Source: Alphaproteobacteria bacterium (GTDB taxonomy: Bacteria > Pseudomonadota > Alphaproteobacteria > Rs-D84 > CACZYB01). From it: a stretch of DNA of 64,000 nucleotides. The stretch spans positions 22,749 to 86,748 of the forward strand of contig WQWV01000002.1 in the NCBI GenBank assembly GCA_009785175.1, in the 5' to 3' direction. The position numbers and the translations under genes were made by a program. This document shows, piece after piece, positions 3,404 to 61,560 of this stretch. How positions within the stretch are numbered: the stretch's first letter is position 1; each line of letters begins with the position of its first letter. Under the pieces are notes generated by a model that ran no database searches, had not been told where the DNA came from, and saw only the letters and a list, made by a program, of their open reading frames with translations.

Positions 3404-3590
3404 CAAATCCCCTCCGGTGGACAGCTCGAGGCAACGAGAGCGCCGGTTCCGTTGTAAAGATTTCAAGCTACGCGTTCACGCGCGCACGCACAGCGTGGGG
3501 GCGGCGTGGTGCGCGCAGCTCTTCGAGCTGGAGAACACAATGTATAAAAAGATTTGTGCGTAGGCGGGATCGCCAAATCGTTGGCGTTTG
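3404..3590. repeat. composite intergenic mosaic repeat (R2 core GGACAGCTCGAGGCAACGAGAGCG + R3 hairpin with loop CAGCGTGGGGGCGGCG + 57-bp unit + GCCAA hairpin); second copy at 37503-37790
   Basis: 57-mer gcgcgcagctcttcgagctggagaacacaatgtataaaaagatttgtgcgtaggcgg is identical at 3511-3567 and 37700-37756; R2 core shared at 3417-3442, 37515-37540, 26268-26290. Confidence 0.85.
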
Positions 3591-3625
3591 TGTGGGCGAT
3601 GGGAGCGGGAGGCTCGCAGGGGATA

Positions 3626-4369
3626 TCAATCCAATGCGGCGTGAAGATCGCCCCAGGCGTCTTTCCTTAGCGACGTGTCCTTTACCATAGCGGATAGTGA
3701 AAACGTTGTGTGAATCGGAATGCCATTCATTATCGGTTTTTCGGCACGCCAGATGGCAACGGAATCGCCCCGGGCGAATAAAATATTCGGGGCGGCGGAG
3801 CCTAGTGCCAAGATTGCCTTAGGCTTTATCAATTCTATTATGCGGGCAAGAATCGGGGCAAGGAATTTCATCTCGGGCGCGGTTAATGCGCGGCGGCCGG
3901 GCGTGATAAATGCGCTTGCCGGAATCGCGTGGACTTCGGCTTCGCTTAGACCCGCTTTCGCAAGCATGGATTTCAATAGCGCGCCCTCGGCACCATCGGA
4001 GAATGCCGCGCCGGATTTGTCGTCTTCTATGGTAGGCAATTCTGAAATGATAAGTAATTTCGGGGCGGCCGCGGCGCCAAAACCCTTTACTATGGTGGTT
4101 GCGAATTTGGCGAGCGGGCAATCGGAAAACGCAGCGAGTTTTTCGTATAGTTCATCAAGCGTGTTTGCTGTGGCTGAGATGCTTGCTGCCTGTTCGACAA
4201 TATCGTCGGTGGAAAGTAGCGGAGTGTCGGAGGTTGCCTCGACCGGCGCAAATGCAGGCGCTTTATTTGACGTGGCAAGCCGAGCCGGCGAGTCAGAAAA
4301 TTCGTATTCCTCGCCCGCGTCCAAAAGGAAGCGTAGCGTTGTCATCGCGTCGGCGGCGGAGTTTTGCAT
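3626..4369 (-). CDS. uracil-DNA glycosylase superfamily protein (family-4-like fold, catalytic GEAPG/Fe-S Cys motifs not conserved), N-terminal low-complexity extension
   Basis: C-terminal 130 aa align block-wise with family 4 UDG (…GAEGALL…KPKAILALG…GIPIHTTFSLSAM…AWGDL), but GEAPG is SELPT and CRPP is absent; start chosen at MQNSAAD (4369), the longer ORF reaches 4456. Confidence 0.55.
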   Translation of the reverse strand: MQNSAADAMTTLRFLLDAGEEYEFSDSPARLATSNKAPAFAPVEATSDTPLLSTDDIVEQAASISATANTLDELYEKLAAFSDCPLAKFATTIVKGFGAAAAPKLLIISELPTIEDDKSGAAFSDGAEGALLKSMLAKAGLSEAEVHAIPASAFITPGRRALTAPEMKFLAPILARIIELIKPKAILALGSAAPNILFARGDSVAIWRAEKPIMNGIPIHTTFSLSAMVKDTSLRKDAWGDLHAALD

Positions 4370-4414
4370 GGAGATATTATAATATAAGGATTTGGGAATG
4401 CAAGGAGAGAGCAA

Positions 4415-4500
4415 GCCATGAACGCCGAGCTGGCGGCGACGCACTTGTGCGCGCATGCCTGCGTGGGGGCGGCGGTCATGCGCGAAGCGAGCAAGCTCGC
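4415..4500. repeat. R3 structured repeat copy (5' arm AACGCCGAGCTGGCGG + hairpin CGCGCATG/CATGCGCG with loop CCTGCGTGGGGGCGGCGGT)
   Basis: conserved loop shared with copies at 3480, 9086(rc), 32623, 46736, 61501; stem sequence differs but remains complementary. Confidence 0.8.
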
Positions 4501-4567
4501 TGGAAAGCTTATATATACTTCACTGGATACTGCGATCAAGTCGCAGTATGACTGGAAGGGTATGAAA

Positions 4568-5245
4568 TTACTTACACCCCATCTCGTCGGCGCGGCCGGC
4601 GGCGAAGGATTTATATTCGGCGCTTGGCGCTGATTCGACCACTGTAAGCAGAGCTTTGCACGCTTCGGCCTCCATGCCCAATTCCGAGAAAGAAAGGCCC
4701 ATATAGAGGAGATTTTCATAGAATTCCTCGTCGCGGGTATCGCCCTTGGCCTTGATATTGTCGGCAAACGCTATCACCGCGCCCTCGAAATCGCTGTTGT
4801 CGAAAAGGGAGAGAGCGTATTCGAACGAAGCTTCTTCATCCTCGGCGGCGATGGCCGGCACTATGGGTTTGGGAGCGGGCGCTATGGCCGAAGGGGCGGC
4901 GGGCGGCGCAACGGGTTTAACGGGCTCGGGCCTGGCTGCTATGGGCGCGGGCGCTGGGCGGTTTCTTAAATCTTCCATCTGCTTCCTGAGCTCGGCGTTT
5001 TGGCGACGAAGGCCCTCGACCTCGGCATTGGCGTCGGTGATCTGAAGCTGAAGATCCTTCGTCTGGCGCTCGGATTGGGTGCGAAGATTGCGAAGTTCGA
5101 AATTCGAGCGCTCGAGCTCGTCGGTCATACGGGCGATCGATTGTTCGTATGCGTCCATGCGCTCGACAAGGCTATTTATGGCCGGATTGGCGGACGCAGC
5201 GGCGGCGGTGAAAAATGCTACTATGAATACGGCTAGTTTTCTCAT
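4568..5245 (-). CDS. periplasmic coiled-coil/TPR protein, CpoB(YbgF)-like
   Basis: signal peptide MRKLAVFIVAFFTAAAASA, heptad coiled coil, Pro/Ala linker, C-terminal TPR-like block; architecture of CpoB. Confidence 0.5.
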   Translation of the reverse strand: MRKLAVFIVAFFTAAAASANPAINSLVERMDAYEQSIARMTDELERSNFELRNLRTQSERQTKDLQLQITDANAEVEGLRRQNAELRKQMEDLRNRPAPAPIAARPEPVKPVAPPAAPSAIAPAPKPIVPAIAAEDEEASFEYALSLFDNSDFEGAVIAFADNIKAKGDTRDEEFYENLLYMGLSFSELGMEAEACKALLTVVESAPSAEYKSFAAGRADEMGCK

Positions 5246-5361
5246 GTTTTCCCTCTGGCGCCATAATATAGGATGGAAATTTTTTAATCAATAGGAATTT
5301 TTTACTTGACAAAATATTATAATATGATAGATTATGTCCAGGTAAAACAAGCGAGGTAAAT

Positions 5362-5979
5362 ATGTATGTCCCACGCGATGTAATATACTACTCGAAAATC
5401 GAAGCCGTCCCCTCAAACACAGAGGGCACCAAATCCGGCCCCACTAAAATTATCAGCTCGCGAGAAGTCGTAAAAAGTGTTCTTGAATATGAAAACCGTA
5501 AAGAATATATAACTTTGGACAACAACTGTATACCCTCGATCGGAATCCCCGGCGAGTTGGCTTTCGAAGGGGTGAAAAACGAGATCGCGCCCGACGAAGC
5601 TCTTCACATCGTCGTTGCGACAATAAAAGAAATCACAAAGCAGTATGCCAAGATCGTTCCGACCATTTTCAGGAGGGGCAAATACTGCTCGTTCGATTCG
5701 GTGCAACGTCGGAAAATGGATAATGAATACAGTCAGTTCATAAACGCCGCGGACGTCCTTATCGCGCTTATGGGCGAAGTGGATTTCGTCGAGATGGAAG
5801 ATTCCAAACTTCCGCTTGGCCGTGAACGCGGGCGGCACAACGTCCTTTATATGGCGAAAATGCTACGCGACAAAGCGGCGCTTGCGCGGGCGGGGGAAAT
5901 AGTGGTCAACACCGAGGCGGCGTATTGGGAACGGCTGGCGCAATTAAAGCAGGAACAGGTGCAATTGGTCATGGGTTAG
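5362..5979 (+). CDS. hypothetical protein (205 aa), AT-rich promoter region upstream
   Basis: ORF with AGGTAAA SD; TTGACA at 5308 upstream; no recognisable motif. Confidence 0.45.
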   Translation: MYVPRDVIYYSKIEAVPSNTEGTKSGPTKIISSREVVKSVLEYENRKEYITLDNNCIPSIGIPGELAFEGVKNEIAPDEALHIVVATIKEITKQYAKIVPTIFRRGKYCSFDSVQRRKMDNEYSQFINAADVLIALMGEVDFVEMEDSKLPLGRERGRHNVLYMAKMLRDKAALARAGEIVVNTEAAYWERLAQLKQEQVQLVMG

Positions 5980-5980
5980 T

Positions 5981-7063: not shown

Positions 7064-7154
7064 ATCGCTATTGTAGCGGGATTTTGGGGCGGAGTCAAGG
7101 GAATGCTTGACTTATCATGTATTGTTATTATAATTGCCAGTGAAAGGAAATATT

Positions 7155-7853: not shown

Positions 7854-7860
7854 CTTATAC

Positions 7861-7896: not shown

Positions 7897-7900
7897 ATAA

Positions 7901-8380: not shown

Positions 8381-8409
8381 GATTTTCTCCTTTTTGGCTA
8401 TGATTTCCT

Positions 8410-8436: not shown

Positions 8437-8589
8437 GTATTTTAACTATCTGCAGTCGACGGTAGAACTTGTGGGACGAAAATAAAGAGCGGACAATCGC
8501 ACGTCCGGGCAAGCACGAACTTGTGAGTGCCAACGCCCGGGTGGGGCGTGCGTTGGCCGCCTGGCGGCGCGCATACAAATATACGTTAT

Positions 8590-9051: not shown

Positions 9052-9059
9052 AATATATC

Positions 9060-9150
9060 CTCCGATAAAGCTCCGTTAGGAGCTTGCGCGCACCACGCCG
9101 CCCCCACGCTGTGCGTGCGCGCCCTTCGGGCTCGCCGCCCTGCTCGGCGT
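9060..9150. repeat. R3 structured repeat copy, reverse orientation
   Basis: rc reads ...acgccgagcagggcggcgagcccgaagggcgcgcacgcacagcgtgggggcggcgtggtgcgcgca... Confidence 0.8.
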
Positions 9151-9166
9151 GGTTTGCCCTTTATCA

Positions 9167-10489
9167 TCATGGCGCCAATCTATTCGGGCCGCGGAATAGG
9201 AACTGTGCATCGCGGATCGAATCCAGGTTCAGGAGCTGCTTGGCTATCCTTTGGCCGCCCATGCCCCAACCGCCGTGCGGAGGCATGCCGAAACGGAAGA
9301 AGTTGGCGAACCACTGAAGCCCTTCGAGCTTCAATTTCTTCTCGGCGATCTGGGCCACAAGCTTCTCGTAATTCTCTTCGCGCTGCGCCGTGGTCGCTAT
9401 TTCCACACCCTTATAAAGCAAGTCGGCCGAGATCGAAATCGGCGATACGCCGTCGTCGCTTGAAACTCCCTTCTTGTGATAGAAAGGCCGCGCGCTCCAC
9501 GGGAATTCGGTTATGAACACAAAGTCGGAGCCAAGCTCGGCCGATACGTATTCGCCAATAGCCTTTTCCTCGGCGGTGGTCATATCGCCATCGGCAACAT
9601 CGTGGCCGCGCGATTTTAGGATTTCGCGAGCCTTGTGCATGGTCAGGCGCACCATAGGTTTTTTAAGGCCGATGTCCTTTATGCCCAGGTGCTTTTCGAT
9701 TTCCGCGCCACAGGATTTATCCACCTCGGCAAGCACCGCGGCAAGAGATCCCTCGAGCATATCCATAACGTCGCTGAAAGAATCGATATATCCCATCTCG
9801 GCGTCGTGGCCGATGAACTCGGTCGCGTGGCGAGTGGTGAACGAGTTGTCGGCGCGGAAAACCGAACCGATTTCGAATACCTGCTCGAGCCCGGAGGCGA
9901 TGCCCATCTGCTTAAAGAACTGGGGCGATTGGGCAAGGTATGCCGTCTGGCCGAAATAGTCGAGCGAGAAAAGCTCGGCGTTAGATTCCGACGGAGATGC
10001 CATGAATTTGGGCGTGTGGATTCCTATGAAGCCTTTGGAAATCAGAAATTCGGAATAGCCGCGGTCGATGGCGGAGAGCGCCTTCATTATCGTGGCATCG
10101 CGTTCGCGGCGCAACGTCAAGAAGCGCCAGTCCATGCGCTTTTCGGCGCTGACCTCGTCATCGCCTTTTTCTATTATCGGAATCGGGAGAAGCGGGTCGG
10201 CCGCGGACATGACGTCCAAGCTTTCGATTTGAATCTCGAGCCCTTCCTTGGTGCTTTTGGTTTCGACTACGGCGCCGGTGATTTTGATTACCGATTCCGT
10301 GGCAAGCTCCTTTACGGTTTCGAATGCCGCGTTGTCCTTGCCGATAACGCATTGCACGGTGCCGGTGATGTCGCGCACGATTATGAACGCGACCGAGGAC
10401 TGTTTACGCAAAGTTTGCGCGTGGCCGGCGATGAGGACTTTCTTGCCGATATGGGCGGAAAGTTCGGATAGATGTATTCTGTTTTGCAT
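9167..10489 (-). CDS. class II aminoacyl-tRNA synthetase, archaeal-type aspartate--tRNA ligase / asparagine--tRNA ligase (cannot distinguish)
   Basis: 440 aa; N-terminal OB anticodon-binding domain, class II motifs (…FRADNSFTTRHATEF…, C-terminal GGWGMGGQR motif 3). Confidence 0.8.
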   Translation of the reverse strand: MQNRIHLSELSAHIGKKVLIAGHAQTLRKQSSVAFIIVRDITGTVQCVIGKDNAAFETVKELATESVIKITGAVVETKSTKEGLEIQIESLDVMSAADPLLPIPIIEKGDDEVSAEKRMDWRFLTLRRERDATIMKALSAIDRGYSEFLISKGFIGIHTPKFMASPSESNAELFSLDYFGQTAYLAQSPQFFKQMGIASGLEQVFEIGSVFRADNSFTTRHATEFIGHDAEMGYIDSFSDVMDMLEGSLAAVLAEVDKSCGAEIEKHLGIKDIGLKKPMVRLTMHKAREILKSRGHDVADGDMTTAEEKAIGEYVSAELGSDFVFITEFPWSARPFYHKKGVSSDDGVSPISISADLLYKGVEIATTAQREENYEKLVAQIAEKKLKLEGLQWFANFFRFGMPPHGGWGMGGQRIAKQLLNLDSIRDAQFLFRGPNRLAP

Positions 10490-10772
10490 GTTGGCTCCTT
10501 TGGTTAGTGCAAGGACGCGGAATTGCGTGGTGCCACCTTGCTTCGCTTTGCCGCCGGGGCGGCTCTGCCTCTTTATGTTTACGCCTCGCCATTGTCAGAG
10601 GGTCATGGGCGTTGAGTGGGATTATAGAACGGGGTGGGAAAATTGTCAATAGGGACGACCGATTCGCCGTTTTTCCTATTATTCCGAGCATTATTTTATT
10701 GAAAAAATCAAAATTTATCTCTTTGTATTTACCTATTTTATAAATTATTATTAACTTTTTGATAAAAACATA

Positions 10773-10805
10773 TTGACAATAATATAAATATGATGTTATT
10801 ATCAA
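10773..10805 (+). promoter_or_regulatory. promoter TTGACA-N18-TATTAT overlapping imperfect inverted repeat TTGACAATAA..TTATTATCAA (candidate NrtR operator) upstream of nadM-pncB-pncA
   Basis: seen in very AT-rich segment 10650-10845; IR arms 9/10 complementary. Confidence 0.35.
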
Positions 10806-19099: not shown

Positions 19100-19270
19100 G
19101 GATAAATCAAAAGTTATTCGTTGGCTCCGCTAGTCGAAAATACTTTCGATTTTGGAATACTTTTTATACAGAGCAAGCCAAGAACGCCACGGGCGTGCTT
19201 GAGCCTGCGAAAGCCGGCGCCCGGGTGGGGCGTTCGCCGGCCCGCTCCGCGGGGGTAGCACAATAGGCTT

Positions 19271-26250: not shown

Positions 26251-26550
26251 AAATCTCCCCTTGTGGACAGCTGGACGAGGCAACGCCGAAGTGCCAGCAA
26301 GGTTCCATAAGGGGAGATTTGTGTTCAAGCGGCAAAGCCGCGCCTGCCCCCTTTAATAACAATGGTTTAATTTGCCCAAAAAAGCCAAGAGCAGTTGGCT
26401 TTTGTTAGGCGATGCTTGCATGGGCTCGCGGGGAATTTTTTCTATTGTCATTCCGGCCACCGGGCCGGAATCTAAGCCGACTGGATACCGGGTCGAGCCC
26501 GGTATGACAAGAGATTAAATCCCCCTTGGTGGTGCCTTGGGGGATTTTTG
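26251..26550. repeat. composite intergenic repeat block: R2 element (26251-26320), GCCAA hairpin/terminator (26385-26410), tandem hairpins incl. R1 copy (26449-26508), R2-mini hairpin (26515-26550)
   Basis: each sub-element has copies elsewhere in window. Confidence 0.8.
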
Positions 26551-26964: not shown

Positions 26965-26994
26965 ACAATACCCCCCCCCGGAAGATTTTGTCAA
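26965..26994 (-). promoter_or_regulatory. TTGACA-[aaatcttcc+G9]-TATTGT promoter with G9 tract (C9 on + strand 26971-26979) in 18-nt spacer
   Basis: same architecture as 8410-8436 and 32971-33000. Confidence 0.5.
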
Positions 26995-27013
26995 GTGGAA
27001 ACTTAGGGATATT

Positions 27014-32561: not shown

Positions 32562-32572
32562 ATAAACTTTCT

Positions 32573-32690
32573 AGCGAAGCCACAGCCGCCAGCAGGGCGA
32601 AAGAGCAGTATTGCGCGCACCCCTGCGTGGGGTGGCGGTTGTGCGCGCAGCGAGGCGAGCTCGCTGGAAAGTCAATGTATAAACGTGAAA
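32573..32690. repeat. R3 structured repeat copy (hairpin GCGCGCAC/GTGCGCGC, loop CCCTGCGTGGGGTGGCGGTT) + conserved 3' arm GAGCTCGCTGGAAAG
   Basis: 3' arm also shared with copy at 4486-4520. Confidence 0.8.
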
Positions 32691-32893: not shown

Positions 32894-32970
32894 ATTTATA
32901 TATAAAATTCCTATGGGCGCGCTTTTGCGAATCGGTATATAGACCTTTGGCGGGATAGAATGCTTTATGC

Positions 32971-33000
32971 TTGACAAAATCCTGTGGGGGGGGGTAGATT
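32971..33000 (+). promoter_or_regulatory. TTGACA-[aaatcctgt+G9]-TAGATT promoter with G9 tract (32986-32994) in 18-nt spacer, driving the 33032-34666 operon
   Basis: -35 32971-32976, -10 32995-33000, AAGGA SD then ATG 33032. Confidence 0.55.
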
Positions 33001-37478: not shown

Positions 37479-37502
37479 AAATTCTTAATCAAGCATAACC
37501 CC

Positions 37503-37790
37503 AAATCTATACCTATGGACAGCTCGAGGCAACGAGAGCGAGGTTCCATGGGAATAGATTTGTAGCTACGCGCAAAGCGCTCCCTCCCCCCCCATTTTTT
37601 TGATAACACAGGTTTAATCTGTCTCAAACAAAACATCGACGTAGCGATACTCGCATCACGTCCTAGCGCCACTACGCCGGCAGGGCGGAAGCGCCAATGG
37701 CGCGCAGCTCTTCGAGCTGGAGAACACAATGTATAAAAAGATTTGTGCGTAGGCGGAACGCCAAGAGCAGTTGGCCTTTGTGAGGCGGCG
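37503..37790. repeat. composite mosaic repeat, second copy (R2 core, C8/T7 tract, R3 fragment, identical 57-mer at 37700-37756, GCCAA hairpin)
   Basis: see 3404-3590. Confidence 0.85.
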
Positions 37791-39168: not shown

Positions 39169-39406
39169 TTCTTTCTCCTGGAATATTTTATCCTTTATAG
39201 AGTGCGAGGTCAAGTATATATCCTTCTTCTGCTCGCTTGCGAGCGCGCACATGCGAGCGTCGCCTCACAAAGGCTCCGGTGGAGCGTTTGGAGGCAAATT
39301 AAACTATATGTTTTCGCCCGCGCGCGCCGAAGGCGCTTATACACAAATCTGATATAGCGGAGGCCTGGCTCTCCTTCGTCGAGCTGTCCGCTATATCAGA
39401 TTTGGG

Positions 39407-39435
39407 GTTATACTTCACTGGATACCGGGTCAAGC
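39407..39435. repeat. R1 hairpin repeat copy (ACTGGATACCGGGTCAAGCCCGGTATGAC)
   Basis: canonical copy, perfect 8-bp stem. Confidence 0.85.
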
Positions 39436-42510: not shown

Positions 42511-43712
42511 TGTTCAAATCCGCGGCGACAAAGTTGAGAAAATCGGCCGGGGGAAAGTGGCTGCCTATCGTGCTTTTCGCACTTGGGACACGGCTTGTGC
42601 TTGCCTCGGAATCGCCTACGTTCGTGGACGAGGACGCGCTTGCGGCGCAGCTTAAAGCCCCGATGAAAAACGTCGCCGTGGCGTCGGCGAAATCCATCGA
42701 AATCCGCATGAGTATGCAGCGCGATGATATGGTTGCGGCGGCGGATACTGTGAAAGCAGCGCTTGAGCGAATGAAGACCTCCGCCCCTTGGGCTATCGAA
42801 TTCATACGCGACAACAATATGCGCTTTATGGTTTCCCTCGGAGGGGACGGCGACGGCATACCCGGCGCAGGAAGCTTCTCGCCAAACCGGCCGGACGAGA
42901 TACAGATAACGCCCCTTATGACCTTCTTGTCCGACGAGAACGGGGAACTCGACTTCTCGAAAAAAAGATATACCAAGGTGGAGGAGATGGAAAACACCAT
43001 TATCCACGAGCTTATCTACGCATGGCAATATCGAAATTTGATGAATGCCGGAATAAATAATCTAGTAAACAAGATGGATCTTGAACAAAAGATCCTTTAC
43101 CTATTCTTCCTTGAATACGACGCCGTGGGAAAAACACAGATAGCCACCGGCGGCGAACACACTGTGCGCGAAGGCAATATCAGCCGAATGTGGGGTATAT
43201 ATTACATCGACCAACACATGAATCCCTCCGCTTATTCAAACGCGGACTTCGCCAAATTCGACAGCCTTTATACCGCGATACGCGCCGATGTCGAAATGAA
43301 CCTTGGCACCGGAATATCGGACGAGGAATTCAAAAAAGTGATAAGGGCGACTTTGGCTACTGGCTCGGCGGACATGGCGCACAGGGATTTTACGGATTCG
43401 GAAATAGACGAGATGAGGCGACGTTTCCTTGCGGGATTAAAGCCGGAGCAAAGGACGGCCTTGAGATACCTTGACATGAACGCGGTCATATTGGACAGGC
43501 AAGACGTGCTGCTTGATAAACGGAAGGATTTGTTGGGACAGGCCGAAAAATTATCAAAGAAAAGAAATATGACTAACAAAGGGAAGATTGCGAATCAACA
43601 GAAAATAAACAGCGCAATGGAAAAACACGACGAATATAAAAACACCTATAAACGGTTGGAATGCGTTTCCCAAGAGTTCGACGAGTATGCAAAAAGGAAA
43701 ACAAGACGATGA
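42510..43712 (+). CDS. hypothetical secreted protein (400 aa) inserted between def and fmt
   Basis: signal peptide; no recognisable domain; translationally coupled on both sides. Confidence 0.5.
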   Translation: MFKSAATKLRKSAGGKWLPIVLFALGTRLVLASESPTFVDEDALAAQLKAPMKNVAVASAKSIEIRMSMQRDDMVAAADTVKAALERMKTSAPWAIEFIRDNNMRFMVSLGGDGDGIPGAGSFSPNRPDEIQITPLMTFLSDENGELDFSKKRYTKVEEMENTIIHELIYAWQYRNLMNAGINNLVNKMDLEQKILYLFFLEYDAVGKTQIATGGEHTVREGNISRMWGIYYIDQHMNPSAYSNADFAKFDSLYTAIRADVEMNLGTGISDEEFKKVIRATLATGSADMAHRDFTDSEIDEMRRRFLAGLKPEQRTALRYLDMNAVILDRQDVLLDKRKDLLGQAEKLSKKRNMTNKGKIANQQKINSAMEKHDEYKNTYKRLECVSQEFDEYAKRKTRR

Positions 43713-44632
43713 CCAAACTTCGCGCGATATTCATGGGCACGCCCGAGTTCGTGATTGGCTCGTTGGAATTGGTCGCGGCGGAATGCGAGCTTGTCGGCGT
43801 GTTCACAAAGGCGCCTGCACCCGTCGGACGCAAGCAGATTTTGACCCCCTCGCCGGTGGCGGTGTGGGCGGAGGCGAATGCGGCCGGCGTGCCGGTCATC
43901 ACTCCTCGTTCGCTTAGAAAGCAGCCGGAATTCGTTGAGGAGGTTCGGTCGCTCAAACCCGACATAATCATCGTGTTTGCGTATGGTTTGATTTTGCCGC
44001 AAAGTGTCCTTGATATCGCGCCGTGCGTTTGCGTGCACCCGTCCGCCCTGCCCCTTTACCGAGGAATGAATCCTATCGGCCGCGCGATTTGGAACGGTGA
44101 TTCTTTCACCGAGGTCGACCTGATCGCGATGGATGCCGGAGTAGATACGGGTGCGGTTTTGCTGCGTCGGCGGATTGAATTGAATCCTTCGATTACGCGC
44201 GGCGCGCTTGAGGAAATTGTTGCGGCGGAATCGGTTTCTGCCTTGCGCAAATACTTGGCTGCGCCGGCCGATTTTCCGCCCGTGGCGCAAGAAGGCGAGG
44301 CGTCGATGGCGGCCGCGTTTAGCGCGGAGGAATTGGCGATCGATTTTTCGCTTCCGGCGCGTGCGGTGTTGGCGCGAATCAACGCCCTGCTCCCGACCCC
44401 CGCGGGATATTTCGTCGCGAACGGAGAGAAGATAAAAATACACTCCGCCGTCATTCCGGCGAACGCCGGAATCCAGTCTATATATAAAAACTGGATACCG
44501 GGTCAAGCCCGGTATGACAACGGACGATTGTTCATAATGTGTAGCGATGATGTAATAGAAATCCTTCGGGCCCAGCGTCCGGGCGGAAAGATTTTGGCGG
44601 CGCGAGATTTCCTAAACGGGTTCAAGATATGA
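43709..44632 (+). CDS. fmt: methionyl-tRNA formyltransferase; carries in-frame R1 repeat insertion (codons for …KNWIPGQARYDNG…)
   Basis: N-terminal formyltransferase domain (HPSALPLYRG), C-terminal Fmt domain; R1 at 44490-44518. Confidence 0.85.
   Translation: MTKLRAIFMGTPEFVIGSLELVAAECELVGVFTKAPAPVGRKQILTPSPVAVWAEANAAGVPVITPRSLRKQPEFVEEVRSLKPDIIIVFAYGLILPQSVLDIAPCVCVHPSALPLYRGMNPIGRAIWNGDSFTEVDLIAMDAGVDTGAVLLRRRIELNPSITRGALEEIVAAESVSALRKYLAAPADFPPVAQEGEASMAAAFSAEELAIDFSLPARAVLARINALLPTPAGYFVANGEKIKIHSAVIPANAGIQSIYKNWIPGQARYDNGRLFIMCSDDVIEILRAQRPGGKILAARDFLNGFKI
44490..44518. repeat. R1 hairpin repeat copy inside fmt coding sequence, in frame
   Basis: ACTGGATACCGGGTCAAGCCCGGTATGAC. Confidence 0.85.
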
Positions 44633-45801
44633 AACCAAGTGTGCGCCGCAACATAGCAATCTTCAAGGCGATGAATGCCTTCATGTTCTTCTGGCCGCTT
44701 TCGGCTGTGGCTATAATTTATTTCGAGTCTATCACAGGAAGCTGGGCAACCGCCGCACTTATCTTCTCGCTTTCCAACATAACGCAGGCCGCATTCGCGA
44801 TTCCGGCCGGGATAATATCCGATGTATGGTCCAGAAAAAAAGTGGTCCTTACCGCAAACACTTTCAAAATCATGACGGGCCTTACCTTCTCGTTCGCGGG
44901 ATACATAGAAAACGCCACGCTATTGTTCATCGGCGCGGTGCTTTGGGGCATAAACACGTCCTTGAACCAAAGCACGGAAGAGGCGTTCATACATGAAACG
45001 ATGGCCGACCTTAAGAAGAAAAACAAATACGACATAGTCTATTCCTCAATCAAAATATGGCGCTATGTGGGCTCGACCGTTTCGACATTGACCGCGGCGG
45101 CGGTAATATATTTCTGGAGCCTCAACACGCTTGCCTGGATTTCAGTAATCCCAGGCGTGTTCCAATTCGCGGTCAGCTGCTTCCTTGTGGAACCGAAAAG
45201 CTATCGGCCGCGCAAGAACGCGTCGCTTGGACACTTCATGGCGGCGGTCGGGAATTTCATGAAGAACAGGCGGGCGCGCAAAATCGCGCTTGCAGGCACT
45301 ATGGACACAAGCTGGGGCGAAACGCAATACCGCCTCAACAGCGTATACTACGCCCTTTTCGTGCCGTTGTGGGCGGTGGATTTCATAGTGTTTATCGCCA
45401 GGGCTTTCGCGGGGATAAGTTTTTACATAGCGATACACCTTAGGAAAATCGGATTGTTCCAGATGGCGCTTGTGTCGAATTTGTGGAAGTTCATTATGGT
45501 GGGCCTGGGACTTTTGCTTAACAACATAGCATCGCCGTTCATAATGGCGGCTTCGAGCCTTGGCACAGGACCGCAAACCTCCGCGGTATCGGCGCTTATG
45601 CAGAAGGAATTCTCGGATTCGGAGCGGGCGGCAATGCGAGCGGTCGTGAACATGTTCGGAAGCTTGATGCTGGCGACATCGTTCTGGATTTTCGGATTGG
45701 TCGCGGATTTGTATTCGGCGCATATCGCGCTTCTAGGACTGTTGGCATATAAGGGTTTAATCACCGTCTATTACTGGCGGTTGATGAGGAGTTATAAGTA
45801 A
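44629..45801 (+). CDS. MFS-type membrane transporter (12 TM)
   Basis: 390 aa polytopic; MFS-like motif region …GIISDVWSRKKV…. Confidence 0.55.
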   Translation: MKPSVRRNIAIFKAMNAFMFFWPLSAVAIIYFESITGSWATAALIFSLSNITQAAFAIPAGIISDVWSRKKVVLTANTFKIMTGLTFSFAGYIENATLLFIGAVLWGINTSLNQSTEEAFIHETMADLKKKNKYDIVYSSIKIWRYVGSTVSTLTAAAVIYFWSLNTLAWISVIPGVFQFAVSCFLVEPKSYRPRKNASLGHFMAAVGNFMKNRRARKIALAGTMDTSWGETQYRLNSVYYALFVPLWAVDFIVFIARAFAGISFYIAIHLRKIGLFQMALVSNLWKFIMVGLGLLLNNIASPFIMAASSLGTGPQTSAVSALMQKEFSDSERAAMRAVVNMFGSLMLATSFWIFGLVADLYSAHIALLGLLAYKGLITVYYWRLMRSYK

Positions 45802-46700
45802 TGATTGCGTTAGAGGCAAGGAGGAAATGGCTTGACTTCTTGCGCTCGGAGAGGCGGTTTTCGGCGCACACGTTGGTCGCATACGAAAACGATATCGGAG
45901 ATTTTTTGAAGTATGTCGGCGGGCGCGATTTGTCCGACATCTCCTTGCGCGAATTTCGCGGATTCGTCGCCACCATGGCGCGAGAGGAATTGCGCGCGAC
46001 CTCTATTGCCCGGAAAGTTTCGGCCCTTAAAAGCTTCTATCGATTCCTCGAGCAGAACGGGATAGCGAACAATCCATACGTCGCGATTTTGCGCCTGCCG
46101 AAGCAGCCGAAAAAACTTTCGAAATCGCTTGGCCACGAGGACGTGGGCGAGATTTTGGACGCCTTCAACGCGATCGCTAAACTACCATGGATAGCACGGA
46201 GAAATCGCGCATTATTTACTTTGATATATGGCGCTGGCTTGCGAATTTCCGAGGCGCTTGGCGTCAACATCGAGGCGGTGGGAGAGGACGAAATACGCAT
46301 TCGCGGCAAGGGATCGAAGGAGCGGATCGTGCCGCTTCTATCAGTTATAAAAACCGAGATCGAATCGTATATCAATGCTATGCCTTTTTCGCGCACGACC
46401 GGGCCGTTGTTCATCGGGGAAAAAGGAGCGAGGCTGTCGGCGCGCGTGGCGGAACGCGACTTTGCGGCGGCTAGAAATTATTTACAACTATCGGCAAGCG
46501 CTACGCCCCATTCACTTCGTCATTCGTTCGCGACGCACCTGCTTGCCGCGGGTGCCGATTTACGGACTATACAAGAGCTGCTTGGGCATTCGTCGTTGTC
46601 TACAACTCAACTTTATACCAAAACGGATATGGGCACGATCGCGAAGCAATATGCGAAATCGCATCCGCGGGCTTCGTTTAACAAAAAGTCCTTCGCGTAG
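45801..46700 (+). CDS. xerC: tyrosine recombinase XerC/XerD family
   Basis: core-binding N domain; catalytic R…HxxR…Y (HSLRHSFATHLL, LGHSSLSTTQLYT). Confidence 0.8.
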   Translation: MIALEARRKWLDFLRSERRFSAHTLVAYENDIGDFLKYVGGRDLSDISLREFRGFVATMAREELRATSIARKVSALKSFYRFLEQNGIANNPYVAILRLPKQPKKLSKSLGHEDVGEILDAFNAIAKLPWIARRNRALFTLIYGAGLRISEALGVNIEAVGEDEIRIRGKGSKERIVPLLSVIKTEIESYINAMPFSRTTGPLFIGEKGARLSARVAERDFAAARNYLQLSASATPHSLRHSFATHLLAAGADLRTIQELLGHSSLSTTQLYTKTDMGTIAKQYAKSHPRASFNKKSFA

Positions 46701-46800
46701 CAAGCGACGCCGAGCAGGGCGGCAAGCGGTGTATACCGCGCGCGTCCAGCGTGGGGGCGGCGGAGCGCGCGGAGCCCTTCGGGCTGGAGGGTCAAATTAT
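46697..46800. repeat. R3 structured repeat copy (stem CCGCGCGC/GCGCGCGG, loop GTCCAGCGTGGGGGCGGCGGA)
   Basis: 5' arm GACGCCGAGCAGGGCGG conserved. Confidence 0.8.
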
Positions 46801-56974: not shown

Positions 56975-57240
56975 AAATGGGTATACCAGAATTTATACGA
57001 CGCCAGGACCCTGATTTCTTCGATAAAAGGGATAGGGATTTGAAACGTAGAAATGACAGAGGGAGAGGTGGCGGAAGGTCATATTCACGCAGCTATTCAT
57101 CGCGCTCTGATTATGTATCGCCAAACAGTATGGAAGGAAGATGGAGTGCAAAACCAACGGAGCTTTCTCAACTTGAAAAAGACGAAGCCGCGCGGCGCGT
57201 GAAACAAACACTTGCAAAAATGAAAGGAAACAGGAAATGA
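56971..57240 (+). CDS. hypothetical low-complexity basic protein (R/S/G-rich), GC-poor
   Basis: ORF overlapping comM stop. Confidence 0.35.
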   Translation: MKMGIPEFIRRQDPDFFDKRDRDLKRRNDRGRGGGRSYSRSYSSRSDYVSPNSMEGRWSAKPTELSQLEKDEAARRVKQTLAKMKGNRK

Positions 57241-57812: not shown

Positions 57813-58027
57813 AATAGAAAGTAAGCAAAAACTGGTCAAAGAAGAAAGCATACGTCTTTAACAAAAGCAAGGAATTGATACCCTCGCCCGATGCTAAAAT
57901 AGAACGACCGTGCAAAATCCGCGTTGGCCGCTATAAAGCACCTTATACTATAATTATCTGGATTGCATCTGCTACGCGTTCCCTCTGTTCCCGGCTTGTG
58001 GGGGGGGGGTAATGACGAGAGAGAGCT

Positions 58028-58753: not shown

Positions 58754-58756
58754 AAA

Positions 58757-59488
58757 TTATCGTCCCGAGTATCTTTTCATGAACCTGGCATCGAACGATT
58801 TGGCATCGAATCCATTGAATTTCGAAGTTCCGTTGGCGGGTATAATGGTTGTGGCCACGGGAAGGTCGCGCTGTTCAAGATTCTTTTGCGCCGTCGCCGC
58901 TATCTTTTCCATATCAAGCCCCTTTTCGGCGCCCATCGCACGGTTCGCAAGAACTATGGGATAGAACGCGTGCTCGTGGGAAAGTCCGATTTGGCGGAAC
59001 GTGTCCAAATCCCAAAACTCGCTTCGTTCAAAGGCAAGCTGCGCTATGACGGGGCCGGCATCGTGATCGCTGGTGGCCTTGTGCACCGTTGCGCCGCTAT
59101 AGTAATCGCCGGCCTCGATGGCGTCGGCATAGGCGTCCTTGCTTCCTTGATAGAGCGGAAAAATGCTTGGGTGAATGTTTATAATATCGTTATCGGCGAC
59201 CATATCGTCAGGAAGGAACATCATGTATCCGGCAAGCGCGGTAAGTTGCACCTCTGGATTTTTAAGAAGGAATTCGCGGATTGCGGCGAAATCGTCGTTC
59301 GACGGCATGTGCTTGACCTCGACGCCAAGTTTTTGAAGGCGTTCATAGATTCCAGCCTTGCCCGGCGCCTTGTTGCAACCGCCTATGAATTTGATGGGCA
59401 GTTTGTTTGACTGGGCGTATTTGACTATTTCTTCGGCGTTCGAGCCGCTTCCGGACCCAAGTATAAGCACTTCGTGTTGCGATTTCAT
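58757..59488 (-). CDS. purN: phosphoribosylglycinamide formyltransferase PurN-like, paralog B
   Basis: GSGSGSNAEEIV, NIHPSIFPLY, …VHKATSDHDAGPVIAQ… align closely with PurN incl. catalytic N/H/D. Confidence 0.6.
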   Translation of the reverse strand: MKSQHEVLILGSGSGSNAEEIVKYAQSNKLPIKFIGGCNKAPGKAGIYERLQKLGVEVKHMPSNDDFAAIREFLLKNPEVQLTALAGYMMFLPDDMVADNDIINIHPSIFPLYQGSKDAYADAIEAGDYYSGATVHKATSDHDAGPVIAQLAFERSEFWDLDTFRQIGLSHEHAFYPIVLANRAMGAEKGLDMEKIAATAQKNLEQRDLPVATTIIPANGTSKFNGFDAKSFDARFMKRYSGR

Positions 59489-59499
59489 TTTATTTTTCC

Positions 59500-59691
59500 T
59501 TAGCGGGTTTTAGAATTGGCGGTGGCGTTCAACTTGGTCGATTGCATGTGCTCGCGGAAACCATCAACTATGAATGCGCCCATGGTAAGAATAGTGGCAA
59601 GCAGGAGAAGGCCGCCGATTATGGATGCACCCAAATCCGAGCTTTGGCTTTCGTTTGCTGGCGCGACGGGAGTTTTGTGTGTAGCTTTCAT
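59500..59691 (-). CDS. small single-TM protein (63 aa), hypothetical
   Basis: AAAAGGA SD. Confidence 0.35.
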   Translation of the reverse strand: MKATHKTPVAPANESQSSDLGASIIGGLLLLATILTMGAFIVDGFREHMQSTKLNATANSKTR

Positions 59692-59841
59692 ATAATAATC
59701 CTTTTAGGTTCTTTTACGAACTAAATTACTAAATAATATAATTTTGTCAAGCAAAACTTTATCGGGAAGTCGCGTGGGCAACAGTAATCAGGATTGACAT
59801 TTGCGCGCGGCTATCCTAAACTTGACCCAAGGAGAGCAGGT

Positions 59842-60015
59842 ATGAAAAAAATTCTTTTGATAGGTATGTTCGTGGCGGCATGCAACTCGCAGTTCGATCC
59901 CTCGCCGGTCGGTGTCGGTTTCGACGCGAACGAGCTTAAAACTTCGCCATGCGCCTGTATCCAGATTGAAAACAAACCCGGGCTTCCCGAATGGTTCGCG
60001 AACGCGATGGCATAA
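59842..60015 (+). CDS. small lipoprotein (57 aa)
   Basis: MKKILLIGMFVAAC lipobox; AAGGAGAG SD. Confidence 0.45.
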   Translation: MKKILLIGMFVAACNSQFDPSPVGVGFDANELKTSPCACIQIENKPGLPEWFANAMA

Positions 60016-60770
60016 ACAATCCTGAGGGGGCTTTCGACGCTGTATTCCCTTTCAACTCCGACGCGGGCACGGACGGATCGCGCAGATACATAGCCGGAAT
60101 ACACAAACTCTCGCGCCTTGCCTTTGCCGCGGTCATGCTTTGCGCCGTAGTGTTGCTTGCCAGCGTGTTCAAAGCTTACGACATAGGCGTGCAACCCTTC
60201 TTGATCGCATGGGACGCAAAAGAACGCGAATTCCGAATCGTTCCCCAATCGCGCGGCGGAAACGTCCGCCACATGGACGAGCGCCGATTCCTTGAGGAAG
60301 CGTTCGTGCGAGAATATATAACGCGAATGTTCGGAGTCTCTTCTATTGCGGCAGTAAACGAATCGAATTGGTGCGGCTGCGAGCGGACTTTGCAGTTTGG
60401 CGCCTATAATCCCAGCGGGCGGTGCTTCGTTTGCAACTTTTCAAGCCCGGCGGTATACGAGACGTTCGCGGTGAACCTTTTGCCCCTTCTTCAATCCCAA
60501 GTTGGCGCAAGACCGGTCAAGATAAACGATGTCCGCCTTTTGGATTCATGGAGCGACCCGAGGCCTACGGGCGTGGCCGCCTTCATGCCGGGGGCAAGGA
60601 ATGCCGTCCGCAACATGTATTCCGAATATCGAATCGATTTCGAGGCGATCGGAGGCGAACGCCTGAGCGCCAACATATTCGTAGTAGGGCCGCTTGACAA
60701 CCCCTCGGGCTTTTATATGGTGCGCGGGGCAAGATTCTATTTCACGCCAGAAGCAAGGTGGGTAAAATGA
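59991..60770 (+). CDS. hypothetical bitopic membrane protein (N-terminal TM + ~200 aa periplasmic domain)
   Basis: start uncertain (several in-frame Met). Confidence 0.45.
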   Translation: MVRERDGINNPEGAFDAVFPFNSDAGTDGSRRYIAGIHKLSRLAFAAVMLCAVVLLASVFKAYDIGVQPFLIAWDAKEREFRIVPQSRGGNVRHMDERRFLEEAFVREYITRMFGVSSIAAVNESNWCGCERTLQFGAYNPSGRCFVCNFSSPAVYETFAVNLLPLLQSQVGARPVKINDVRLLDSWSDPRPTGVAAFMPGARNAVRNMYSEYRIDFEAIGGERLSANIFVVGPLDNPSGFYMVRGARFYFTPEARWVK

Positions 60771-61456
60771 GCCTACGTATCGCCACTTCGCGGTTTATGC
60801 TTACTATCACAAGCCTTGTTTGCATCGGGCTGGCTGCGCTTTTGTTGGTCGGCTCGATCGGCTTCTATAACGCTATCGGGCAAGAGGCGGTGCGGGGAAT
60901 CGTAATTCAGGACGCGAAATCCGAAATCAAAGGCATGGTGTTCACACCGCTTGTAATGGCTGCCCTTGGCCGCGAAAAGCGCGAGGAGATCCTTCGTAGG
61001 CTTATCGTGCAATACATCGTGCAGCGCTATACGTTGAGCGGCAGCGAGGCCGAGATGAGGCGCGTGTTCGGAACCGGATCCATATTCGACATGACGGGCG
61101 CGGCGCTTAAGCTTGCCTCGTATAGTCCAGAGCAAGGGGATTACGGCCAGCCGTTCGCCTCGATTGTCGCCGAGGCCGAAGAACGGGGGCGCCTTTTGAC
61201 CGAGGGAACAACGCGCACCGTCGAAATCATCGGCCAACCGCAGCTTTATAAAGATATGTGGATCACAAATGTCGATTTTATCTATCGAACGCCCGGGATT
61301 TGGCGGCGCGAGGACGCTACGCGCGAATCGTATGAGATCCAGATGGTGCTTGAGCCGTTCGGGGCGTTGCGGATGCCCTCGACCGCCGCACGCCTTGGGG
61401 TGGCAAGCGCCATGTTCGATTGGTATATAAAGTCGATTAATAGGGTGAAGAAGTAA
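60758..61456 (+). CDS. hypothetical bitopic membrane protein (N-terminal TM + periplasmic domain)
   Basis: overlaps previous stop. Confidence 0.45.
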   Translation: MGKMSLRIATSRFMLTITSLVCIGLAALLLVGSIGFYNAIGQEAVRGIVIQDAKSEIKGMVFTPLVMAALGREKREEILRRLIVQYIVQRYTLSGSEAEMRRVFGTGSIFDMTGAALKLASYSPEQGDYGQPFASIVAEAEERGRLLTEGTTRTVEIIGQPQLYKDMWITNVDFIYRTPGIWRREDATRESYEIQMVLEPFGALRMPSTAARLGVASAMFDWYIKSINRVKK

Positions 61457-61466
61457 TCCAGAGCAA

Positions 61467-61560
61467 GCCAGAACGCCGAGCTGGGCGGCCGCGCAGTATT
61501 GCGCGCTGACCTGCGTGGGGGCGGCGTTCAGCGCGCAGCTCGATAAATCGAGCTAAAAAA
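61467..61560. repeat. R3 structured repeat copy (stem GCGCGCTGAC/GTTCAGCGCGC, loop CTGCGTGGGGGCGGC)
   Basis: 5' arm GAACGCCGAGCTGGGCGG. Confidence 0.8.

Follow-up and report, generated by a model that had tools for sequence, protein, structure and literature searches.

R3, a dispersed intergenic repeat with covarying stems in an uncultured alphaproteobacterium, looks like a REP/REPIN-like DNA element

A 64,000-nt stretch of an alphaproteobacterial genome (hereafter the window) contains copies of an intergenic repeat, R3, in which a G-rich core is kept and the stems around it change, and this raises the question of whether R3 is a structured RNA, a site for a DNA-binding protein or a dispersed DNA repeat. 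All six copies reported in the initial annotation are present where it had placed them, and comparison with the gene calls confirms that each is intergenic. Its loop consensus, C(A/T)GCGTGGGG(G/T)GGCGG, fits only the copy at 32623, with one match even when two mismatches are allowed; this copy carries CTGCGTGGGGTGGCGG in place of the majority core (variant at 32625), and the majority form is C(A/T)GCGTGGGGGCGGCG. The core 14-mer GCGTGGGGGCGGCG has five exact copies in the window (3493, 4461, 9096 on the minus strand, 46749 and 61513) against 0.01 expected, a count reached by none of 100 dinucleotide shuffles.

Could the similarity have arisen by chance, or from low sequence complexity, in GC-rich intergenic DNA? 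With three mismatches allowed, the 14-mer is no commoner than in shuffles (17 versus 15.4), and GC-rich genomes yield random matches in coding DNA to a two-part pattern. This explanation is nevertheless refuted, with a residual likelihood of practically nil, by the five exact copies, by full copies that align over 90-96 nt with covariance model (CM) scores of 80-95 bits, and by the leader, arm and 3' hairpin that the copies have in common alongside the core. R3 is thus a real, non-coding, dispersed intergenic repeat of one uncultured alphaproteobacterium. The covariance-model search that the annotation had proposed enlarges the family beyond its six copies, adding a partial copy at 37664 and three copies just outside the window. 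A sister subfamily, R3b, was also found (members at 8507 and 19171). With R3b counted in, the family has 12 members in ~81 kb, all on one contig, a density of about one copy per 7 kb.

R3 is a discrete unit of ~95 nt, running from (G)AGCAAGCC to GCTGG. Its ends were set by comparing the copy at 4409-4503 with P0122, a spurious open reading frame on a different contig, which equals this copy over 32 aa (96 nt) and diverges exactly at GAGCAAGCC and GCTGG; P0122 is a second copy of the 4446 type in an unrelated context. The modules follow one another as leader (nnAGCAAGCC), 5' arm (P0), Px hairpin, P2 hairpin with the G-rich core, and P3 hairpin, giving four hairpin modules per unit. The block GCGTGGGG, the GCGCGC blocks and the arm are fixed in sequence across copies, with the palindromic GCGCGC arms flanking the G-rich 14-mer.

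The best example lies on the plus strand at 61461..61554 (95.1 bits, E=4e-28; unit GAGCAAGCC...TCGAGCT), between a gene of 229 aa, whose stop is at 61456, and nrdD. Its 5' arm ACGCCGAGCTGGGCGG (61473..61488) can fold on itself as P0 (CGCC/GGCG) and, together with 61471-61472, can instead pair with 61522-61529 to form helix P1 (GAACGCCG/CGGCGTTC). The Px hairpin CGCGC-AGTATT-GCGCG (61490..61505) overlaps through its 3' strand with the 5' strand of P2 (61501..61536), whose 18-nt loop holds the core GCGTGGGGGCGGCG (61513-61526). This P2 stem reads GCGCGCTGA/TCAGCGCGC and had been quoted as GCGCGCTGAC/GTTCAGCGCGC, the one incorrect stem in the annotation. The hairpin P3, AGCTCGA-TAAA-TCGAGCT (61537..61554), closes the unit.

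Four other full copies lie in the window. On the plus strand, the copy at 46698..46787 (80.7 bits; P2 CCGCGCGC/GCGCGCGG) overlaps with its leader the TAG stop codon of an xerC/D-like gene, and the copy at 32572..32667 (83.2 bits), which starts 12 nt past the stop codon of a macB-like permease gene, combines the variant core GCGTGGGGTGGCGG with a matching variant 5' arm, AGCCGCCAGC. The copy at 9069..9159 (minus strand, 85 bits) fills the aspS-ruvC spacer and is co-directional with both genes; that at 4409..4503 (plus strand, 84.8 bits) lies between two minus-strand genes, is therefore antisense to both, and is followed by a D1-type hairpin (4523-4552). D1, the other repeat family in the window, also sits in frame inside fmt. 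The two R3b members are on the plus strand: the one at 19171..19253 has the leader GAGCAAGCCAAGAACGCC, as in R3, a GCCGGCG/CGCCGGC stem, the loop CCCGGGTGGGGCGTT and an arm, GAACGCC, that can pair with GGCGTTC, and the one at 8507..8568 has the stem GCCAACGC/GCGTTGGC and the loop CCGGGTGGGGCGT.

Three copies are incomplete (3480, 37664 and L013:12388). The first (3480..3531, plus strand, 51.6 bits) retains P2, core and P3, lacks the 5' arm and is joined to another repeat module (3388-3474); the conserved arm described in the annotation, ACGCCGAGCWGGGCGG, is accordingly found in five of its six copies. The second (37664..37720, plus strand, 21.4 bits, E=1e-4) has leader, 5' arm, Px and P3 and lacks the core and the 3' strand of P2, as if deleted between two GCGCGC repeats; positions 37700-37756 are 100% identical to 3511-3567. 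The copy at L013:12388 carries in its arm an insertion of ~115 nt that contains another repeat, D1, the copy at L013:14188 has a 23-nt insertion within its loop, and P3 modules are swapped between P2 types. Such truncated, interrupted and module-swapped copies are typical of repeats that are mobile or decaying. Several types exist as near-identical sets (3480, 9085 and L013:14188; 46736 and L011:4905), so that the earlier statement that selection on structure, "rather than simple duplication", explains the family was too strong. Taken with the 4446-type copy in an unrelated context, these sets indicate that the family grows by copying of a discrete unit.

The proposal that the stems vary and yet stay complementary is borne out for P2 and extends to Px and P3, with the G-rich block fixed. 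The sequences of Px and P3 vary from copy to copy, always with the pairing kept, the Px stem being different in every type and still complementary. For P1 and for P2, the cognate combination of 5' and 3' strands is the best of 120 permutations, and seven base pairs have changed on both sides, which 0/500 shuffles reach; on four of five covariation measures the observed value is likewise reached by 0/500 shuffles. These statistics rest on only five independent stem types, so that each is capped at ~1/120; within the limits set by this number of types, the stem covariation, whose significance the annotation had put up for checking, is significant.

Only half of the "invariant loop" is really loop: its G-rich block is fixed, but CGGCG and another 2-5 nt, which make up the 3' half, have the 5' arm and its 5' flank as pairing partner. 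In the copy with the variant at 32625, both sides of P1 are altered together, from CGCCG/CGGCG to CCGCCA/TGGCGG. CGGCG and the inner 3' strand of P2 make up a single 3' segment with two complementary partners, the 5' arm and its flank, giving P1, and the P2 5' strand, and the compensatory changes preserve both pairings. P1 and P2 thus vie for one 3' strand, which implies two alternative folds, a long imperfect hairpin formed by P1 with Px at its tip, and a row of local hairpins P0, P2 and P3. Folding predictions with DNA parameters give the long hairpin as the lowest-energy fold in four of six copies.

Fixed unpaired bases, covarying helices and a possible pseudoknot, with P1 crossing P2, are typical of small ribozymes and multi-copy sRNA families, and each copy could accordingly be a small RNA gene or self-cleaving ribozyme in which the fixed unpaired nucleotides form the active or seed region. 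We regard this as highly improbable given the high copy density, the confinement of the family to one lineage, the lack of any Rfam ribozyme or sRNA match, the absence of a promoter or terminator signature that moves with the unit, and the existence of truncated copies, some without the core and others without the arm.

The genomic placement bears on a second RNA reading, in which R3 is a cis-acting module of 3' UTRs or operon spacers, that is, a stabiliser, a terminator, a processing site or a P1/P2 two-state switch. All R3 and R3b copies are intergenic; relative to the flanking genes, five are in sense orientation, four are antisense and three lie in convergent spacers, and 0/12 are found in divergent spacers (P ~0.03). 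Sense copies (46698, 61461, 32572 and 9159) start 0-12 nt past the upstream stop codon and occupy the spacer as far as the following ribosome-binding site. This arrangement, the avoidance of divergent, promoter-only spacers and the resemblance of two mutually exclusive covarying helices to an RNA switch all speak for such a module. However, the four antisense copies oppose both of their flanking genes and a further three are in convergent spacers, truncated and interrupted copies persist, the nearest relatives are without the element, no Rfam family is matched even at E<=10, and the neighbours are housekeeping genes unrelated in function (aspS, ruvC, xerC/D, macB and nrdD), in both orientations. 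An intrinsic terminator is also rejected, as P3 is followed by GGAGAAC, GGAAAGC, TTATCGG, GGAAAGT, GGAGGGT or AAAAAAC, and no hairpin has a T-run after it on either strand. Overall, a cis-acting RNA appears unlikely, and the RNA reading offered in the annotation is weakened by the mixed orientation, the truncated and nested copies and the absence from the nearest relatives.

Orientation relative to GC skew was considered as well. The strand of positive GC skew carries 9/12 R3 copies, a bias that is not significant alone (P=0.15); the unrelated D1 repeat has 7/8 copies on this strand, and the two families pooled give 16/20 (P=0.012). This bias, the independence of orientation from the genes and the fixed G-rich 14-mer between palindromic GCGCGC arms would be expected of a duplex DNA or cruciform site for a host protein, either nucleoid-organising or a polar replication or recombination motif, kept for chromosome function and comparable to the gyrase/IHF sites in BIMEs or to the G-rich, skewed KOPS and Chi motifs. 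A duplex site, however, needs no three-way compensatory change across segments 40-50 nt apart, the motif is wholly absent from relatives, partial copies without the core are still retained, and the bias of R3 by itself falls short of significance. We consider such a site distinctly improbable.

The distribution of R3 is narrow. No copy was found in the 66 kb examined of the four nearest relatives (66-68% AspRS identity), which are not repeat-rich, and none in GTDB representative genomes, JGI metagenomes or IMG/VR. The comparison with Rfam REP, BIME and ERIC models suggested in the annotation returned no known family: a blastn search with 11-base words, which also covers similarity to REP, BIME and ERIC, gave 0 matches in 5,426 E. 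coli genomes, PLSDB plasmids (rhizobial megaplasmids included) contain no sequence match, and no copy has an Rfam hit at the gathering score or, in a scan of the window, at E<=10. Rfam scans of single copies gave only unrelated sub-threshold noise, different for each copy, and no curated covariance model of a riboswitch, ribozyme, sRNA or leader was matched. Logan contigs of two other sequencing runs start or end inside R3 or a neighbouring repeat; from these breaks in independent assemblies, R3 is multi-copy in other samples too. REP and BIME families are accompanied in the genome by a cognate RAYT/TnpA-REP gene of the Y1 HUH type. In the ~81 kb of genome reached, there is no transposase, RAYT, IS gene or Y1_Tnp domain, and the sole recombinase is an XerC/D of housekeeping type.

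Among known repeats, the Rhizobium-specific intergenic mosaic elements (RIMEs) are alphaproteobacterial, ~100 nt long, with several palindromes, and occur in both orientations, as does R3; to our knowledge, three-way covariation and a fixed G-rich core have not been described for them. ERIC/IRU, BOX, Correia and RUP elements are also comparable, being ~100-150 nt long, modular (BOX A-B-C), with stable predicted structure and often co-transcribed. They differ in having terminal inverted repeats or in being long, imperfectly palindromic sequences with conserved stems, and Correia and RUP elements generate target-site duplications. Terminal inverted repeats and target-site duplications, the MITE hallmarks, were not seen in R3: GAGCAAGCC at one end is not an inverted repeat of GCTGG at the other, and the flanks of seven copies share no direct repeat. 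Rickettsia palindromic elements are small palindromic repeats that have likewise proliferated in one alphaproteobacterial lineage, but they insert in frame into protein-coding genes, and all R3 and R3b copies are intergenic. Integron attC sites form a cassette array next to an intI gene; the R3 unit has no R''/R' boxes (RYYYAAC ... GTTRRRY), and its neighbours are housekeeping genes in both orientations.

The closest resemblance is to REP, BIME and REPIN sequences. Like R3, REP and BIME elements are short, high-copy, strictly extragenic and hairpin-forming, lie between co-directional or convergent genes and not in promoter-only spacers, form mosaics with other motifs and are lineage-restricted. 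A REP is defined as a 20-50 nt palindrome preceded by a conserved tetranucleotide, usually GTAG (PMC8266576). No conserved GTAG/CTAC stands beside P0, Px, P2 or P3 on either strand, GTAG occurring in one copy only (at 46697), and R3 is ~95 nt long with four hairpins; it is not a strict REP. Furthermore, in the REPs of E. coli, Pseudomonas and Stenotrophomonas the stem is conserved and the loop is free, whereas R3 has a fixed unpaired core and variable inner stems. In REPINs, conserved blocks go with a variable spacer in which changes are compensatory, and the sequence can fold as a hairpin or as a 'clover' (PMC3116915). R3 shares with them a pair of conserved blocks with a less conserved spacer in between, whose two sides change in compensation, the choice between one long hairpin and several local ones (the 'clover'), a discrete replicative unit of ~70-100 nt, and singlet or partial remnants. 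A REPIN is, however, an inverted REP doublet; in R3 the complementarity between the left and right blocks extends over no more than 9-11 nt, and neither block is an inverted copy of the other. The R3 unit moreover includes P3, an additional 3' hairpin, as well as a leader at the 5' end, and R3 has no known RAYT.

Taken together, the mixed orientation, the lack of copies in divergent spacers, the truncated, mosaic and interrupted copies, the lineage restriction, the absence of an Rfam match and the assembly breaks favor a REP/REPIN/BIME-like repeat over a cis-regulatory RNA. With a probability of roughly 0.55, we take R3 to be a discrete ~95-nt non-coding dispersed repeat of this general kind, multiplied in one alphaproteobacterial lineage and forming a separate family. 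A protein whose gene lies elsewhere in the genome would copy the unit into new intergenic sites; the stems would need only to pair and could thus drift in matched pairs, and any influence on transcripts, for example through protection of 3' ends between genes, would be a secondary matter, independent of orientation. As there is no GTAG, terminal inverted repeat or target-site duplication, no known transposition chemistry can be assigned to R3. It looks like a new selfish or domesticated REP/REPIN-like DNA repeat and not a riboswitch or other known RNA.

Quite unlikely, in our estimate, is that R3 is a two-state or pseudoknotted single-stranded nucleic-acid device of an undescribed kind. If it were, a fixed unpaired G-rich core (GCGTGGGG) would be presented by helices of free sequence, and one 3' strand would be shared, in a manner resembling branch migration, by two covarying 5' partners 40-50 nt apart. 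One possibility would be that it serves as substrate for a new recombinase or transposase that reads structure and leaves behind no GTAG, terminal inverted repeats or target duplication; another, that it is an RNA switch that is mobile and brings regulation to every site at which it inserts. In either case R3b, with the same leader and architecture and a different core, would represent a second specificity of the same system.

R3 is an intergenic repeat of ~95 nt. What its aligned copies have in common is the leader (G)AGCAAGCC, the 5' arm ACGCCGAGCWGGGCGG, a short hairpin with an AT loop, a GC-rich stem around a core (the core block also being written GCGTGGGG) and, at the 3' end, another hairpin, AGC...GCT, with GG after it. 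In the exemplar chosen for the anatomy (61461-61554), the leader (G)AGCAAGCC... occupies 61461-61472 and the 5' arm ACGCCGAGCTGGGCGG occupies 61473-61488, with a self-fold CGCC/GGCG (helix P0). The hairpin Px (61490-61505, CGCGC-AGTATT-GCGCG) comes next, then the helix P2, formed by GCGCGCTGA (61501-61509) with TCAGCGCGC (61528-61536), around the core GCGTGGGGGCGGCG (61513-61526), and finally the hairpin P3 (61537-61554, AGCTCGA-TAAA-TCGAGCT). The ends of the unit are fixed independently by P0122, a spurious 78-aa ORF over another R3 copy on a different 27-kb contig, because its 32 residues identical to the translated 4409-4503 copy diverge exactly at both ends, before GAGCAAGCC and after GCTGG. 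P0122, known from its protein record only, was found through a search with a single 71-aa spurious ORF. It is an artefact like P0121, a spurious 71-aa gene in a public assembly (4418-4633, +) that spans an R3 copy and a hairpin of D1, a separate repeat family. A search with 1,028 aa of concatenated six-frame translations of five copies returned no further ones, low-complexity proteins having probably swamped the candidates.

The initial annotation had described at least six intergenic copies with an invariant loop, a 5' arm and covarying stems. All six lie where it placed them: five carry the exact 14-mer GCGTGGGGGCGGCG, at 3493, 4461, 9096 (minus strand), 46749 and 61513, against a mean of 0.01 in 100 dinucleotide-preserving shuffles (none of which gives five), while the variant at 32623 has CTGCGTGGGGTGGCGG in its place. 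The loop consensus as originally written matches this variant alone, the majority form being C(A/T)GCGTGGGGGCGGCG. The loop is indeed shared, and leader, arm and hairpins with it, except that the copy at 3480 lacks leader and arm. Gene calls and Pfam domains place every copy between genes. A covariance model was built from the five full R3 copies and searched against the window and two extensions, one of 7.4 kb on the upstream side and one of 10 kb on the downstream side; these come from further assemblies of that contig (L011 and L013) and were reached through the window-edge proteins. The five full window copies score 80-95 bits and the 3480 copy 52 bits. Inside the window the search added 37664-37720, a partial copy (21 bits, E=1e-4); outside it, the model found a full copy (L011:4905-4998, 79 bits), one whose loop carries an insertion of 23 nt (L013:14188-14302, 49 bits) and a truncated one (L013:12388-12513, 16 bits). 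Two loci, 8507-8568 and 19171-19253, have the leader and architecture of R3 but a different loop, CCGGGTGGGGCGT, with stems GCCAACGC/GCGTTGGC and GCCGGCG/CGCCGGC; we treat them as a sister subfamily, R3b. The family thereby grows beyond six, to 12 members of R3 and R3b in ~81 kb.

The 3' end of the core, CGGCG, and the next 2-5 bases are complementary to the CGCCG of the arm and its 5' flank, giving the helix P1. The G-rich core is fixed, as first annotated, but it is only half a loop, since its 3' half pairs with the 5' arm. P1 reads ACCACGCCG / CGGCGTGGT in the copy at 9096, GAACGCCG / CGGCGTTC at 61513, CATGAACGCCG / CGGCGGTCATG with one A.G mismatch at 4461, and CACAGCCGCCA / TGGCGGTTGTG at 32625. 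In the last of these, the core has TGGCGG for GCGGCG and the arm CCGCCA for CGCCGA, a matching change that alters three pairs on both sides and makes one mismatch a pair. The bases that extend P1 double as the inner 3' strand of P2, so that one segment covaries with two 5' partners. The same arm-to-loop pairing is found in R3b, as GAACGCC/GGCGTTC (19171) and GCACG/CGTGC (8507). Px differs in sequence in nearly every copy and always pairs (GCGC/GCGC, GCCC/GGGC, CGCA/TGCG, GCGG/CCGC, GCGAT/ATCGC, GCGCC/GGCGC), and P3 is likewise variable yet always paired (AGCTCGA, AGCTCC, AGCGAG, AGCCC, AGCTC).

Duplex energies were computed for every 5'/3' combination of the five independent stem types, several copies sharing a type. 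For P1, the cognate arrangement ranks best of 120, with a sum of -96.8 kcal/mol compared to a permutation mean of -73.3 kcal/mol and a best value without any cognate pair of -76.7 kcal/mol. The corresponding values for P2 are -84.7, -72.6 and -74.2 kcal/mol, the cognate arrangement being tied best with one other of the 120 permutations and two types sharing a 5' strand. In a model-based alignment with P1 and P2 written as a pseudoknot, 7 of the 16 pairs are doubly changed. None of 500 shuffles matches the observed values on four of five measures (paired cells, doubly changed pairs, doubly changed cells and covariation score) and 7 of 500 reach the fifth, further pair types, although with n=5 stem types the floor for any covariation P value is ~0.01. 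Nearly all of the covariation signal is lost when the partner is shifted by 1-3 columns. The covariation evidence is consistent and points one way in four helices, and the selection on structure proposed at the outset is supported.

P1 and P2 compete for 2-4 bases, as does Px with the outer part of P2, and the R3 unit can therefore form two folds. As predicted from the pairing segments, one fold is a long imperfect hairpin, in which P1 leads through a partly paired middle to Px at the tip, with P3 downstream; the other is a series of local hairpins formed by P0, P2 and P3. A short P1 and a short P2 could also form together as a pseudoknot. Among six copies, folding with DNA parameters puts the long hairpin at the energy minimum in four, and folding with RNA parameters does so in three. 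Single-copy folds give z-scores of -0.2 to -3.7 against dinucleotide shuffles, a weak and inconsistent result, so little can be concluded from stability by itself and the two-fold argument rests on covariation. The three-way covariation marks two constrained folds with unusual clarity.

Individual members show decay and rearrangement. The 37664 copy has no core, as if lost by deletion between its two GCGCGC repeats, and L013:12388 is cut after GCGTGGGGG, its arm being split by a ~115-nt insertion that holds a D1 copy. P3 modules are swapped between P2 types, and 3511-3567 is 100% identical to 37700-37756 while their upstream modules are just 75% alike. Two contigs assembled from other sequencing runs have an end inside R3 or a neighbouring hairpin repeat, as expected of multi-copy sequence. 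Relative to the flanking genes, five copies are sense, four antisense and three in convergent spacers; none falls in the seven divergent spacers, which make up 26% of the intergenic length (P ~0.03). No T-run follows any R3 hairpin, and no terminator signature was found.

Beyond the source organism, the next AspRS matches reach only 66-68% identity, and the four nearest of these relatives carry no R3 copy in 66 kb, their loci not being repeat-rich. Searching GTDB representative genomes and JGI metagenomes for an arm...core pattern gave chance matches in GC-rich coding DNA, for example the uvrA-like ABC signature, and the six IMG/VR loci retrieved with a stem-core-stem pattern all score <=16 bits with the model, which marks them as chance matches. 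For a comparison of filled and empty sites, the UDG gene and its neighbour in a relative's locus (L008) are not orthologous to those of the window, and the aspS neighbourhoods of the relatives are not syntenic with it. Rfam offers no known RNA family for R3: no copy has a match at gathering score or at E<=10 over the window, and scans of single R3 copies gave no consistent match.

Between the RNA and DNA readings offered by the initial annotation, RNA is the weaker. A cis-acting RNA module would account for selection on structure, but it is unlikely in view of the mixed orientation, the truncated, interrupted and mosaic copies, the lineage restriction, the contig breaks within R3, the missing Rfam family and the hairpins without a T-run. 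Structural selection could also be read as the mark of a DNA-binding or architectural site, such as the protein-bound cruciform first suggested, which we rate lower still. That R3 is an sRNA or a ribozyme seems very improbable. Twister, HDV-like and pistol ribozymes are out by helix order and by the lack of Rfam matches. An sRNA whose opposite strand would present a C-rich anti-Shine-Dalgarno loop is rejected too, CCCCC being unable to pair with GGAGG. Also set aside were an extended -10 or sigma-54 promoter in the AT-rich 3' flank (poor matches, one overlapping the ruvC start codon) and a short peptide, MYKKICA, that is encoded after two R3 copies but lacks conservation in the others.

Several other repeats lie near R3. 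D1 (CTGGATwCCGGnTCrAGnCCGGwATGAC) is a second hairpin family with fixed flanks and loop and covarying stems (ATACCGGG/CCCGGTAT, ATTCCGGC/GCCGGAAT, ATACTGCGA/TCGCAGTAT); seven of its eight copies are on the plus strand (4523, 7863, 19273, 26481, 35180, 39418, 44491) and one on the minus strand (44476). An inverted D1 pair lies in frame at 44450-44518 within fmt (43661-44632, +; methionyl-tRNA formyltransferase), where it encodes VIPANAGIQSIYKNWIPGQARYD within a loop of the C-terminal domain and adds a net ~7 residues relative to Fmt proteins of solved structure. Neither the ORF nor the two Pfam domains are interrupted by the pair, whose in-frame position recalls Rickettsia palindromic elements. 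A third module of ~85 nt (...CCCAAATC...GGACAGCTCGAGGCAACGAGAGCG...GATTT...AGCTACGCG), which contains nested complementary segments of its own, occurs at 3388-3474 and 37486-37572 (+) and 39379-39415 (-), directly 5' of the partial R3 at 3480 and ~90 nt upstream of that at 37664. Two more modules beside R3 copies, the hairpin AACGCCAAGAGCAGTTGGCGTT, in which contigs of other runs terminate, and the motif GGTTTAATCTG(C/T)CTCAAAC, are found at 2252-2306, 26351-26405, 37603-37628, 37757-37785, 3580-3617, L013:12400-12450 and L013 ~14100, and form a composite of ~300-350 nt in three places.

Further features of the window were recorded. Directly upstream of aspS (9167-10489, -), the T-box leader model matches weakly at 10508-10803 (-): it scores 24 bits, where the gathering score is 93, with E=0.0024 for the 571-nt spacer. 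The T-box motif and the terminator/antiterminator region are well matched by the 3' end of this stretch, AAGGUGGCACCACGCAAUUCCGCGUCCUUG, and place and orientation are right for the leader of an aminoacyl-tRNA synthetase gene; in an alphaproteobacterium such a leader would be unusual. A 16-bp palindrome, ACACTATATATTGTGT (61773-61788), fits the NrdR box; the likely GTG start of nrdD (61862) follows ~75 nt downstream. The nrdD ORF called from 61814 (TTG) extends too far in the 5' direction, the 673-aa product on record starting at 61862. Runs of C8-9 (G9 on the other strand) stand beside TTGACAAAAT-type motifs at 26969-26995, 32970-32996 and also 37581-37589, occurring as an inverted pair, TACCCCCCCCCGGAAGATTTTGTCAAG / CTTGACAAAATCCTGTGGGGGGGGGTA; the homopolymer tracts adjoin promoter-like -35 boxes.

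Among known repeats, REPs are palindromes of 20-50 nt after a conserved GTAG, often arranged in BIMEs (PMC8266576). R3 lacks this tetranucleotide and reverses the pattern, its unpaired core being fixed and its inner stems variable, and neither E. coli genomes nor PLSDB plasmids contain a similar sequence. Closest in logic are REPINs: their two conserved blocks go with a variable spacer in which compensatory changes are common, and hairpin and 'clover' folds have been proposed for them (PMC3116915); the two conserved blocks of R3, however, are not inverted copies of one REP. Since it has neither terminal inverted repeats nor a target duplication, R3 is not a classical MITE, and its identification as an attC site, a terminator or an RPE was rejected. 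We file it as an apparently new family among miniature structured intergenic repeats, distinct from REP proper.

The reading we favour, with a probability of roughly 55%, is that R3 is a REP/REPIN-like dispersed repeat, specific to its lineage and copied in the form of a folded single strand. A protein encoded elsewhere would read the folded strand and copy R3, an analogy drawn from REP/RAYT and IS200/IS605. The copying is inferred rather than shown: the 81 kb hold no transposase of any kind (the sole recombinase is a housekeeping-type XerC/D, 45801-46700), no empty site or insertion polymorphism was retrieved at R3 sites, and the strand bias is weak: 9 of 12 copies lie on the strand with positive GC skew, which alone is not significant (P=0.15) and reaches P=0.012 only with the unrelated D1 (7 of 8) pooled in. 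The kind of element is already known.

In practice, repeats of the R3 type break short-read assemblies of this organism and yield spurious ORFs such as P0121 and P0122. If the favoured reading is true, R3 would be another independent invention of a miniature structured repeat colonising intergenic DNA, in an uncultured and poorly sampled lineage of alphaproteobacteria, the relatives of which are without it. Its value goes beyond cataloguing in that its conservation is the reverse of that of the classic REP, and one strand with two covarying partners is a sequence-level sign that both alternative folds are constrained. The hairpin/'clover' proposal for REPINs needs such two-fold evidence, and R3 could serve as a test of it.
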